Part shown: piece after piece, positions 464 through 6,894 of the stretch
Position numbering within the stretch: the stretch's first letter is position 1
Layout: the number at the start of each line of letters is the position of its first letter
Assembly (NCBI GenBank): GCA_045655905.1
Contig: JAZOQF010000193.1
Span: 1,102 to 65,101, forward strand
DNA: 64,000 nucleotides
Origin: Acutalibacteraceae bacterium
GTDB taxonomy: Bacteria; Bacillota; Clostridia; Oscillospirales; Acutalibacteraceae
Direction of reading: 5' to 3'
Program-made: the position numbers and the translations under genes
Notes under the pieces: model-generated
Seen by the model: the letters and a program-made list of their open reading frames with translations, nothing else
Database searches by the model: none
What the model was told of the DNA's origin: nothing

Positions 464-736
464 TTACAGCTCGCCCCCATAGTGGCTCTCAAGCATTGTC
501 TCAATTGCCACAATTGCGGAACCCCAAGTTTCCTCATCAGGATACCATTCAGCGCCACGCTCACACAGGAAAACAAGCTCTCCTGTGGTCTCATTCATAA
601 CCTCAATATAGGGGAATGCGTGGTCAGCCAATTTCGCCACAAGTCTTGCTTGACAATAAGAAAGATGGGGATAGGTAATTCGCGCAGTGGGCAGAGGGGA
701 ATAGGTGCGAGAGTCAAGAGTAACGGTATAGGTCAT
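464..736 (-). CDS. hypothetical early protein (90 aa)
   Basis: Internal ATG of track ORF 464-886 (MTYTVTLDS...), with an AAGGAG RBS upstream, its own promoter 765-793 and a TAA stop. Confidence 0.65.
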   Translation of the reverse strand: MTYTVTLDSRTYSPLPTARITYPHLSYCQARLVAKLADHAFPYIEVMNETTGELVFLCERGAEWYPDEETWGSAIVAIETMLESHYGGEL

Positions 737-1500: not shown

Positions 1501-1809
1501 TTAGTCAAACAGATTTACCGTAGGGGTAGGCTCTGCGACCTTTGCGGACTTCTTACGCTCTACCTTGACAGTGGGGTCAGCGGTGGAGATGGTAAGAGCA
1601 AGATGTGCGTACACAGTGTTACCTGTGAGATGGTCTTTCGCGACAGGAATGGAAAGACCGCCATTGACATTGGTCACAACCTCTGCGAGATTGGGGTTAG
1701 AGCCAAGTGCGGAAACTACCTGCCCCATAACCTGAGTCGCTACCATAGAGCGAACCTTTGCGGAAACATTGCCCTTCTCGTTAGTGAAAGAAATTACAGA
1801 CATAGCCAT
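1501..1809 (-). CDS. hypothetical early protein (102 aa)
   Basis: Track ORF with ATG start, GGAGAAAGG RBS, promoter 1865-1893 and TAA stop. Confidence 0.7.
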   Translation of the reverse strand: MAMSVISFTNEKGNVSAKVRSMVATQVMGQVVSALGSNPNLAEVVTNVNGGLSIPVAKDHLTGNTVYAHLALTISTADPTVKVERKKSAKVAEPTPTVNLFD

Positions 1810-3560: not shown

Positions 3561-3579
3561 GCGAGGGTCAAGCCCTCGC
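3561..3579 (-). terminator. GC hairpin overlapping stop codon
   Basis: GCGAGGG-TCAAG-CCCTCGC. Confidence 0.5.
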
Positions 3580-3999
3580 TTCCAGCCATTCTACCATTTT
3601 TCTACTCTCGTCTTTCGCTCTGATTTTGGTCTTGCTACCATTTTTCTCGCTCTCGCGGGTCAAGTAGCCAAATTCGGTAACGAAAGTTCTAAACTCGCTC
3701 GCGTTCATCTCGTAGACCTTGAACTCGCGACTTACATAGGCGAAAGTCTTGCTCGCGACTCTTGCGAAATAATCGTCAAGCATCTCGCTCATTGTAGAGC
3801 CTTTCAGTTGCCCACCAGAGCAGAGGGAGAACTTGGCACTCTTGACGCTCATATCAAGTTCGGGGATATCAGAGCCTTCATACCATTTGAGATTGCCGTG
3901 CTTGCGGAGGCAACCAGTCTTTTCGTATGTAAGGGAGGCTTCACAGTTTTGACCGTGATTGGCATAAGCGGAGATATTAGAAATAAAGTAAGTAGTCAT
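3568..3999 (-). CDS. early paralog family member 1 (143 aa)
   Basis: Track ORF. Shares an N-terminal NHGxN..E, a central S(A/V)K(S)A...C.G and a C-terminal ESEKNG..K.R.KDES..M.E.LE.RA with 5881-6282 and 6493-6894. Confidence 0.7.
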   Translation of the reverse strand: MTTYFISNISAYANHGQNCEASLTYEKTGCLRKHGNLKWYEGSDIPELDMSVKSAKFSLCSGGQLKGSTMSEMLDDYFARVASKTFAYVSREFKVYEMNASEFRTFVTEFGYLTRESEKNGSKTKIRAKDESRKMVEWLEARA

Positions 4000-5299: not shown

Positions 5300-5347
5300 G
5301 GGGTTTTGAAAAAAAGTTAAAAAATTTTTTGGCGCCCGGGCCGCGCA

Positions 5348-5384
5348 CGAAAGCACCCCAAGCAAGAGGAAAAACTTGGGGTGC
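5348..5384 (-). terminator. intrinsic terminator of the RNA cassette
   Basis: GCACCCCAAG-12 nt loop-CTTGGGGTGC, a 10-bp stem followed by CUUU on the minus strand. Confidence 0.65.
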
Positions 5385-5562
5385 CAAATAGGGGAACCGA
5401 AGCCCACACCTATTTTGTTCAATTTTAATTTACCCTTATTTTTAAGGGTTGAGTGTTGTAAAAGGGAAGCCTTGCAAGGTGACTTCTCCCCTCTCCTAGC
5501 ACCTTTTCTCCCTCTGCGAGAGTGGCAGCCTTGAAGTACAGTTCGTCGTCCTTCCCTCTTAC
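5348..5562 (-). ncRNA. candidate structured small RNA (~215 nt)
   Basis: Lies between consensus promoter 5569-5597 and terminator 5353-5384. The transcript contains no AUG. A closing helix GUAAGAGGGAAG / CUUCCCUUUUAC is present, plus hairpins AAGGUG..CACCUU, ACCCUUA..UAAGGGU and AAAUAGG..CCUAUUU. Confidence 0.4.
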
Positions 5563-5568
5563 ACTCAT

Positions 5569-5597
5569 ATTATACCACAAAACTTGTGGTTTGTCAA
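5569..5597 (-). promoter_or_regulatory. sigma70/sigmaA-type early promoter
   Basis: Minus strand TTGACA-17 bp-TGgTATAAT. The -10 abuts the ATG of track ORF 5425-5610, which argues against that ORF. Confidence 0.75.
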
Positions 5598-5668
5598 GGG
5601 ATTTCTGCAAAAAACTTTAGAATTTTTTGCATCCTCGTGCGTTCCTATGCGACTCGTCTATCGCAATT

Positions 5669-5749
5669 TTATGAGCACTAAGGTCTATTGCTACTTCCAA
5701 CCGTAGCCCCACACCGCAGATGTGGCTCAGAGGTATCTCCCCTTGACAT
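5669..5749 (-). CDS. possible leaderless micro-ORF (MSRGDTSEPHLRCGATVGSSNRP, then TAG-CS-TAA) or short RNA
   Basis: The ATG lies 4 nt after the -10 of promoter 5754-5782. The ATGTCAAG context matches 1967. The region also folds into several small hairpins. Confidence 0.2.
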
Positions 5750-5753
5750 TATT

Positions 5754-5782
5754 ATTATAACATATTGTGGCTTGCTTGTCAA
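5754..5782 (-). promoter_or_regulatory. sigma70/sigmaA-type early promoter
   Basis: Minus strand TTGACA-17 bp-TGtTATAAT. Confidence 0.7.
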
Positions 5783-5866: not shown

Positions 5867-5895
5867 AAAAAAGAGAGGGCTTATACCGCCCTCTC
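5867..5895 (-). terminator. intrinsic terminator
   Basis: GAGAGGGC-loop-GCCCTCTC overlapping the TAA, followed by U6 on the minus strand. Confidence 0.75.
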
Positions 5896-6282
5896 CTCAA
5901 GATATTTCAGCATTGCTTGTGACTCATCTTTTAATCTCATCTTAACCGCACCGCCGTTTTTCTCGCTCTCGGTTGTAACCGTTGCAAATGCGGTACAGAA
6001 TGCGATGTATTCGGCTTTAGTCATCTTGTATGCGATGCCAGCCTTTGTGCCGTAGATGTATTCGGTAGCACAGTCATCTTCAAGATACTTGACGATGTCA
6101 GTGCCCTTGCACACAGTTGCTCTCGCGCTCTTGATTTGGTAAATCAGGCAATCAGTGCCTTTGTTGTGCGCGATGTTGTCGGCTTTTTCAAGCTTGCCTG
6201 TGAGCAAGTAGCGGATGGATTGCTCTACATTGTGCCCGTGGTTGTGGTAGTTGTTGAGATAAGTGAAGTTGAAAGTAGTCAT
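5881..6282 (-). CDS. early paralog family member 2 (133 aa)
   Basis: Track ORF. About half its residues match 6493-6894 (LTGK.EKADNIAH.KGTD, KSARATVCKGTDI, ESEKNGG). Confidence 0.75.
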   Translation of the reverse strand: MTTFNFTYLNNYHNHGHNVEQSIRYLLTGKLEKADNIAHNKGTDCLIYQIKSARATVCKGTDIVKYLEDDCATEYIYGTKAGIAYKMTKAEYIAFCTAFATVTTESEKNGGAVKMRLKDESQAMLKYLEERAV

Positions 6283-6490: not shown

Positions 6491-6509
6491 GCTCACCTTG
6501 CGGTGAGCC
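6490..6509 (-). terminator. GC hairpin overlapping stop codon
   Basis: GGCTCACC-TTGC-GGTGAGCC. Confidence 0.5.
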
Positions 6510-6894
6510 ATTCCAACATTCTTTGTGTTTCGTGTCCCAGCCTGATTTTTGGGGTTCCCCCGTTCTTTTGGCTCTCACGGGTTACTGTGCCGAAGACTTG
6601 CACAAATTGCTCATATTCAGTACGGCTCATTATGTAGGCGGTGCCGTCTTTGGTGATGTAGGCGTATTTGCTTGCCTTGTCGGCATCAAGGTAGGCTTTG
6701 ATGTCGGTGCCCTTGCAGACGGTTGCTCTTGCCGATTTTACGGAATAGATGCCGATGTCGGTACCCTTGTCATGTGCGATGTTGTCGGCTTTTTCAACCT
6801 TACCCGTTAGGGTGTAGCGGAACCATTGTTCAAGGTGTTGTCCGTTGTTGCGGTAGGTGCGGTTAAAATTGGGGGTTAGAGTGAAGTGTTTCAT
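6493..6894 (-). CDS. early paralog family member 3 (133 aa)
   Basis: Internal ATG of track ORF 6493-6954 (MKHFTLTPNF...), with AGAGAGGA RBS, promoter 6926-6954 and TGA stop. Confidence 0.75.
   Translation of the reverse strand: MKHFTLTPNFNRTYRNNGQHLEQWFRYTLTGKVEKADNIAHDKGTDIGIYSVKSARATVCKGTDIKAYLDADKASKYAYITKDGTAYIMSRTEYEQFVQVFGTVTRESQKNGGTPKIRLGHETQRMLEWLTAR

Follow-up and report, generated by a model that had tools for sequence, protein, structure and literature searches.

What does a strong phage promoter make when the unit behind it holds no AUG? Positions 5348-5597 of a 64,000-nt stretch of DNA from an Acutalibacteraceae bacterium (hereafter the window) raise this question, and the original prediction, made from the sequence alone, proposed a candidate structured phage small RNA as the answer. 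That proposal holds in part. The unit is noncoding and structured, and it descends from a real, covarying RNA family that is absent from Rfam, but it is not an intact member. Comparison with related phages indicates that it is a core-deleted derivative of this family, here called family A, in which the 5′ accessory domain is kept.

A Phage Early Region Built from Promoter Cassettes

The contig that contains the window is 66 kb long and belongs to a fragmented MAG of 1.46 Mb in 196 contigs. The window carries genes for DNA polymerase, topoisomerase II subunits, DnaB, primase, and RecJ, the replication set of a large phage of lytic type. Between 357 and 10202, two divergent arms carry 22 perfect or near-perfect TTGACA-N14-TG-N-TATAAT promoters in ~10 kb, and the whole window has 25 such sites compared with 0.06 expected. 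Ordinary early cassettes have a 25–35-nt leader (GUAAGAAAGAGAGG…AUG) followed by a tiny protein gene (32–60 codons). Two adjoining leftward cassettes have no start codon preceded by a Shine–Dalgarno sequence, namely the unit of the promoter at 5597-5569, which is our subject, and that of the upstream promoter at 5782-5754. Two further leftward consensus promoters lie outside the window at contig positions 100 and 676 (minus strand; genome G000, contig C193), so the leftward early arm extends to the end of the contig, which probably cuts it short. An intact full-length copy of the RNA gene could lie off the contig (relatives span 65–183 kb, compared with 66 kb here).

A 133-aa early protein has three paralogs in the window (3568-3999, 5881-6282, 6493-6894; −). 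It is abundant in metagenomes (281 homologs at E ≤ 1e-10 in the protein collection); Pfam and PHROG searches with it returned no match, and one JGI name reads "predicted DNA-binding protein." A DNA search of deposited phage genomes with this region of the window gave no relatives, and homologs of this protein led us to ~30 related metagenomic phage loci (numbered with the prefix L), all of which have the same promoter-cassette architecture.

Cassette boundaries are marked by a GC-rich CCCGGG block (GCGCCCGGGCGC; window 5331-5346), followed by an A-run and a T-run UP-like tract. This punctuation is conserved across related phages, with equivalents in L005, L013, L032, L034, and L039, and may be a recombination or protein-binding site. 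In L004 (5640-5890), a 16-bp palindrome (GTTAGTTATAACTAAC or GTTAGTCATGACTAAC) occurs four times, flanking a CCCGGG site and overlapping a short promoter unit; the repeats look like an operator array. One related phage (L026 10441-10779, L027 4746-5084) has, among its early cassettes, a gene for a protein with a PemK-family toxin domain (PF02452). The called 167-aa homolog of the 133-aa protein in L022 (4001-4504) matches the database sequence only if TAG is read as Gln, which hints at stop-codon recoding in part of the phage group.

A Consensus Promoter Followed by No Gene

The promoter of the unit matches the extended consensus TTGACA-N14-TG-N-TATAAT at 12 of 12 positions on the minus strand, as predicted, and has an A/T-rich UP-like tract upstream (Table 1). 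The only ATG directly abuts the −10 hexamer and had been taken to lie off the transcript. We agree, since standard promoter geometry leads us to infer initiation 5–8 nt past the −10 (about G5564/G5562). L039, L013, and L016 have ATA at this position. From 5565 to 5348 the minus strand is free of ATG, which bears out the proposed AUG-less transcript; this absence is in itself unremarkable, as 27% of dinucleotide shuffles are likewise ATG-free.

Table 1. Features of the promoter unit, its neighbor, and related elements (window coordinates unless a locus is named)
Feature	Location	Strand	Details
Early promoter	5569-5597	−	−35 TTGACA 5597-5592; extended −10 TG 5577-5576; −10 TATAAT 5574-5569; 12/12 consensus
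A/T-rich UP-like tract	about 5598-5630	−	upstream of the promoter
Sole ATG of the unit	5566-5568	−	directly abuts the −10 hexamer
5′ clamp domain P1	5458-5562	−	closing helix, three-way junction, long purine-rich arm, small hairpin CCUUGCAAGG at about 5479-5470
25-codon GUG ORF (VLGEGRSH…)	5425-5502	−	inside the P1 domain; judged noncoding
ACAAC deletion junction	5455-5459	−	single copy joins the flanks; L039 has two, the second 109 nt further downstream, where the core junction ends (…CAAAGACAAC)
3′ pseudoknot remnant	5432-5456	−	ACACUC; AACCCUU 5450-5444; loop AAAAAU; AAGGGU 5437-5432; blastn matches to L005, L013, L016
Hairpin with cUUCGg tetraloop	5387-5414	−	loop 5401-5398; from folding
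Terminator-like hairpin	5353-5384	−	GCACCCCAAG / CUUGGGGUGC; 10–12-bp stem, loop of ~10–12 nt, then UUUCGUG
Neighboring ORF-less family B unit	5617-5782	−	consensus promoter 5782-5754; RNA starts UGUCAAGGGGAGA and enters the UP tract of the next promoter
tRNA-like element 3′ of core	L016 1339-1440		
tRNA-like element 3′ of core	L039 13247-13348		
tRNA-like element 3′ of core	L013 about 640-716		
tRNA-like element 3′ of core	L057 about 1692-1768		
Family B units elsewhere	L004 9140; L005 6305; L010 194; L019 7940; L022 6845; L023 7106		
Family B units elsewhere	L026 7273, 11565; L038 5418, 6123; L039 13724, 11561, 11432		

The 25-codon GUG ORF had been described as the only frame available. It does exist, but the 3′ part also contains the starts of three TTG/GTG ORFs (59 codons from 5422, 39 from 5387, and 30 from 5409). 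These three were rejected as genes; they cross the hairpin, the CCCGGG palindrome, and the next promoter. Protein, Pfam, and PHROG searches with the 61-aa frame (the ORF at 5425-5610) and a 47-aa peptide found nothing. A long open frame is common to the window and L039, where it enters the covarying core described below and has ATA instead of ATG. Synonymous-site variation, which had been named as a finding that would count against the RNA, is not what the comparison gives: 4/4 substitutions relative to L039 in the alignable parts would be nonsynonymous, and the L039 frame is startless. Because the start is ATA in L039, the frame runs into a covarying core, every substitution would be nonsynonymous, and no homolog or family match was found, we reject a coding role, and the unit reads as noncoding.

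A small protein gene, whether the 25-codon GUG ORF (5502-5425) or the 59-codon TTG ORF (5422-5243), is very improbable and the peptide reading already largely refuted: GGGAG lies 5 nt upstream of the GUG, and many real genes of this early region are just as tiny (32–60 codons), but the GUG sits within a stable helix domain, its equivalent in L039 is directly abutted by GGAG and opens a frame that enters the structured core, the ORF is not conserved as a gene, and the TTG ORF makes the crossings noted above.

A Stable Fold with a Weak Terminator

Folding of the whole ~215-nt RNA gives −78.1 kcal/mol (z = −2.77, 1/200 shuffles), and folding of the 3′ part gives −41.1 (z = −3.98). The proposed 12-bp closing helix, formed by GUAAGAGGGAAG (5562-5551) and CUUCCCUUUUAC (5469-5458), appears in both the MFE and the centroid folds, and an equivalent helix is found in L016, L026, L032, L034, L039, and L057. 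All three 3′ hairpins of the original prediction are also present (5450-5432, 5414-5387 with its cUUCGg loop, and 5384-5353). The cUUCGg hairpin aligns loosely with the tRNA-like element of L039 and, on this weak homology, may be what is left of the T-arm/acceptor after decay.

The last hairpin had been called a terminator. It does have a GC-rich stem, of 10–12 bp, but the tail is UUUCGUG, and a terminator scan does not call it. With intrinsic terminators defined by at least 5 U within 8 nt past the stem and a loop of 3–8 nt, the hairpin falls short on both counts; the terminators of neighboring units, unlike this one, have 5–6 U. Given the weak U-tract, termination here is probably partial.

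The statement that the RNA is not tRNA-like is upheld: ARAGORN finds no tRNA or tmRNA, and the Rfam tRNA model has no match in the window. At the gathering threshold, Rfam 15 gave 0 matches across the whole window (including ROOL, GOLLD, tmRNA, 6S, riboswitches, and ribozymes), and the best match in a permissive scan of the window was atoC at 24 bits, compared with a gathering score of 50.

Family A Is a Structured, Pseudoknotted RNA of Gut and Rumen Phages

In related phages, units that open with the leader GUGUAAGAGGGAAG run on into a long conserved sequence. A pattern of two invariant blocks added L039/L042, L043, L046, L056, and L057 to this set; the corresponding scan of the genome collection yielded 24 matches with ~17 expected by chance, of which only L046, L056, and L057 carried other hallmarks. 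Family A and its covariance model, R1, were defined in this analysis, the family from 17 distinct metagenomic phage sequences. Its core of ~150 nt has five nested helices (Pa, Pb, Pg, Pf, and Pd), a 3′ pseudoknot, PKe (AACCCU/AGGGU), and long invariant joints GUAAGAC, GGUAUAnAA…AGUAGACCAAAGACAAC, and GUGUGGAC.

Covariation supports this structure. Among 11 cores aligned with MAFFT, 95% of cells are paired compared with 82% in shuffles, and 15 pairs changed on both sides (0/500 shuffles). For the 17 distinct sequences, in an alignment made to the model and thus leaning toward the structure, the figures are 95.2% and 74.8%, with 20 pairs changed on both sides (0/500 shuffles) and 32–42% in slid controls. 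Copies outside the training set of model R1 (L026/27/28) score 143 bits. PKe is well supported. A second pseudoknot, PKc (CUCCG/CGGAG in subtype T1; UCCAG/CUGGA in subtype T2, in a shifted register), is tentative: when tested directly, each subtype has 5-bp complements, with an equal run in 7–19% of shuffles, and column counting cannot credit T2 because of its shifted register. Subtype T3 keeps the Pb–Pg–Pf junction and the GGUAUAnAA block and is otherwise rearranged and looser; RNAalifold recovered only a partial structure for it, and we left it out of the model as a rearranged relative.

We conclude that family A is a previously undescribed structured, pseudoknotted RNA of related gut and rumen phages, and its promoters suggest that it is made at the start of infection. 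Rfam 15 gave no match to the core of intact members, even in a permissive search of a 451-nt input, and detected only the adjacent tRNA. Nor did family A match any of 50,697 deposited phage genomes, including in a search with the full L039 unit. Scans with model R1 were negative for the genus (150 genomes) and the class (150 genomes) of the host; as a positive control, the model gave one match (177–189 bits) in each of three known carriers. A tmRNA-like reading of the family was discarded, as no frame is tag-like and candidate frames cross covarying helices. Resemblances to RNase P, T-box, HDV-like, and hammerhead RNAs were not borne out by Rfam.

Members share the core and differ around it. 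In most, a purine-rich 5′ leader is clamped by a downstream CU tract around an insert that ranges from 8 nt (T2) to ~170 nt (L057). The P1 interiors of the other members are unrelated, and only the closing helix is common. In L013, L022, and L046 the core occurs with no large P1/clamp domain, which makes the core the constant part and P1 an accessory. The 3′ context also varies: a tRNA-like element follows PKe at 4–5 nt in L013, L016, L039, and L057; a GC-rich hairpin follows in L005, L032, and L034, an ORF in L022 and L046, and the next promoter in L043. This variety argues that the constant core acts as an autonomous RNA rather than as the leader of one gene.

The tRNA-like elements are of two types. 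The type in L016 and L039 has a GCU anticodon, a ~32-nt insert in the variable region, an encoded CCA, and a G3–U70 pair; these elements score 53–56 bits with the Rfam tRNA model, lie directly 3′ of the core, and escape ARAGORN. The L013/L057 type was detected neither by ARAGORN (L013) nor by an Rfam scan of L013. L004 (10936-11029) carries a minimal tmRNA-like acceptor/T-arm (GGGG…GGGUUCGAAUCCCG…CCACCA) in which ~27 nt replace the message part; it scores 35 bits, below the Rfam tmRNA gathering score of 47.

These observations suggest how an intact member might be made. A strong sigma-70-type early promoter would drive a three-part RNA: a 5′-terminal clamp, in which the leader GUAAGAGGGAAG would pair with the downstream CU tract around a variable insert; the ~150-nt core, with Pa, Pb, Pg, Pf, Pd, PKe, the tentative PKc, and long invariant single-stranded joints; and often, 4–5 nt further on, a tRNA-like element at which RNase P could define the 3′ end. 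As a working guess, the RNA may be a stable decoy or aptamer that acts early, with RNase P forming its 3′ end at the fused tRNA-like element.

The Window Copy Keeps the Clamp and Lacks the Core

The window and L039/L042 are syntenic across the 133-aa gene, a family B unit (see below), the family A unit, and shared early genes, with flanking proteins 40–65% identical. The order B then A is also found in L010 and L019. The window leader is identical to those of L013, L016, L022, and L039. Compared with the L039 unit, the promoter aligns, 2 of the first 31 nt of the RNA are mismatched, and so is 1 of the last 37 nt of the clamp. Across the P1 domain, 65/68 alignable bases are identical (96%) in L039/L042, the only relative with which the P1 interior is shared, compared with ~70–78% identity in the surrounding DNA.

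Past the clamp, ~109 nt of core are missing, a stretch that in L039 begins just after one ACAAC and ends with the next; alignment to L039 resumes at ACAACACUCAACCCUU. A second difference lies downstream, where AAAAAUA in the window replaces 22 nt of L039 with the Pd and PKc partners (GAGUGU and CGGAG) and the invariant GUGUGGAC. The window also lacks GAGUGUGUGGACGGAGCG and the tRNA-like element of L039. What remains of the 3′ side is a short remnant. ACACUC (5456-5451) is the 5′ strand of Pd, whose partner GAGUGU is missing, and both PKe strands are present (5450-5444, 5437-5432) but fold as a plain hairpin; the 3′ strand might derive from the D-loop region of the tRNA. In the L039 alignment, the core helices Pa, Pb, Pg, and Pf with the invariant GUAAGAC are absent from the window, and of the joint GGUAUAnAA…AGUAGACCAAAGACAAC only the terminal ACAAC is kept. 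With model R1 there is no match across the whole MAG, and the top score in the window is 5 bits; nhmmer profiles built on T1 and T3 were negative as well.

Relic or Working Short RNA

The host RNA polymerase would still be expected to make a stable, folded RNA of ~215 nt from this unit, ending at or passing the weak hairpin at 5353-5384. Promoter and clamp are intact; the core was lost by deletion between the two ACAAC repeats, 7 A/U bases stand in place of the segment with the Pd and PKc partners and an invariant joint, and the tRNA-like element is gone or decayed. With the core missing, the activity of the family should be impossible, so this noncoding early unit is most likely a relic, a reading that we favor with modest confidence. 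Nearly all of the family-invariant bases are gone, through three separate lesions, and clamp interiors are not conserved across the family. Exact scans of the viral contigs for the 5′ core and junction of the window found no second phage with the short form, and a scan for the 3′ strand of P1 returned L039/L042 only. Among 211 genomes of the host genus searched with the DNA of the element, only the promoter part was matched. Uniform neutral decay of a relic does not fit the P1 domain, where 96% of bases are identical while the DNA around it has diverged further; this identity would imply that the deletion is recent, that the cassette was exchanged not long ago, or that P1 is still under selection.

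The same identity is an argument that the short form is a functional stand-alone small RNA, consisting of a clamp with a GGA/GGAG-rich arm and three 3′ hairpins, in which loss of the core was tolerated or selected. We consider this possible but doubtful. Such an RNA might, for example, be a decoy that titrates a host RNA-binding protein or the anti-SD of the ribosome, and it would account for 65/68 identical P1 bases between phages whose flanking proteins are 40–65% identical, for a perfect consensus promoter, for stable folds (z = −2.3 to −4.0), and for several GGA/GGAG motifs in the arm. However, the unrelated P1 interiors of other members, with only the closing helix in common, point to an accessory clamp rather than a conserved effector, and the short form was found in no second phage. 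The P1 arm is shared with one relative and has no covariation support. An antisense search of the phage contig and the MAG found nothing beyond chance (longest match 15 nt, E = 0.2).

A broader version joins both levels: family A would be a new class of complex-fold RNA that uncultivated gut and rumen phages make first and that RNase P cuts at a fused tRNA-like element to give the 3′ end, and the window clamp a separable, independently selected, core-free small RNA. The core would then be an aptamer or ribozyme-like element with one or two pseudoknots, and the clamp could be, e.g., a GGA/GGAG-rich decoy. Taken as a whole, this combination is speculative and seems unlikely to us.

Two further readings are improbable. 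The first is an assembly artifact or minority deletion variant, in which the real population would be full-length and the MAG contig collapsed between the ACAAC repeats. The junction does fall exactly at a 5-nt direct repeat, in a fragmented MAG (196 contigs), but 5 nt is far too short to mislead an assembler, and the two other independent differences (22 nt to 7 nt; the missing tRNA-like element) would require more than one event. At a similarly low level we place a cis-acting structured leader, with read-through into the 53-aa gene cassette (5237-5076) and a 5′ fold that stabilizes or insulates the mRNA. The weak UUUCGUG tail, on a hairpin that is unscored as a terminator, would permit read-through, and 5′-terminal helices are a general means of slowing 5′-end-dependent decay (RNase J, RNase E). 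Yet the downstream gene has its own perfect promoter and a standard 33-nt leader, and homologous units end in a tRNA-like element or GC hairpin followed by unrelated neighbors. We retain the relic as the preferred reading of the window RNA.

Very Short Promoter Units of Family B

The ORF-less unit directly upstream belongs to a second group, family B, and is syntenic with units in L010, L019, and L039/L042. Family B comprises very short promoter units without ORF or terminator, with an RNA of ~50–90 nt that starts UGUCAAGRGG and runs directly into the UP tract of the next promoter; there are several units per phage (Table 1). Their downstream sequences differ, and some subgroups have a covarying hairpin (GAGAGGGU/ACUCUC compared with GUGAGGGU/ACUCAC).

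Significance of the RNA Units

The window element is itself minor, a truncated RNA gene, and it led to an unannotated RNA family. The core of family A is compact and pseudoknotted, covaries strongly, and contains many unpaired bases that are invariant; the family sits in the first-transcribed region of widespread, large, uncultivated phages of ruminant and gut Firmicutes. Folds of such complexity usually bind a ligand or protein or catalyze a reaction, and early expression points to host takeover or counter-defense. The natural core-deleted copy in the window offers a ready comparison for which part of the RNA matters. With the family B units as well, a sizeable share of the early program of these phages may be RNA rather than protein.

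Comparison with Known Systems

The pRNA of phi29 is an ORF-less structured RNA expressed from a strong early promoter near the genome end of a Firmicute phage, and in this respect it is of a kind with family A. It serves small terminal-protein phages as a component of their packaging motor. Nothing ties family A to packaging, and family A has no Rfam match.

[quoted passage not shown] A sequence relationship between the two was sought and none was found. To our knowledge, the SPO1 module has not been described as holding ORF-less RNA cassettes like those of families A and B.

ROOL and GOLLD RNAs are "often near tRNA islands," and GOLLD can be covalently linked to tRNAs (PMC12286853). Like family A, they are phage-borne, noncoding, and highly structured with pseudoknots. 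They differ in being ~500–800+ nt long and forming multimeric cages, whereas the family A core is ~150 nt and has no sequence or structure match in Rfam 15. The window copy does not have even the family A core.

The stable RNAs species 1 and 2 of T4 (rnaC/rnaD) are small, cotranscribed with tRNAs, and released by tRNA-processing enzymes. They belong to another phage group and host and are likened here by description, and the window copy has no tRNA-like partner. What they share with family A is tRNA adjacency, the core lying 4–5 nt upstream of a tRNA-like element in L013, L016, L039, and L057.
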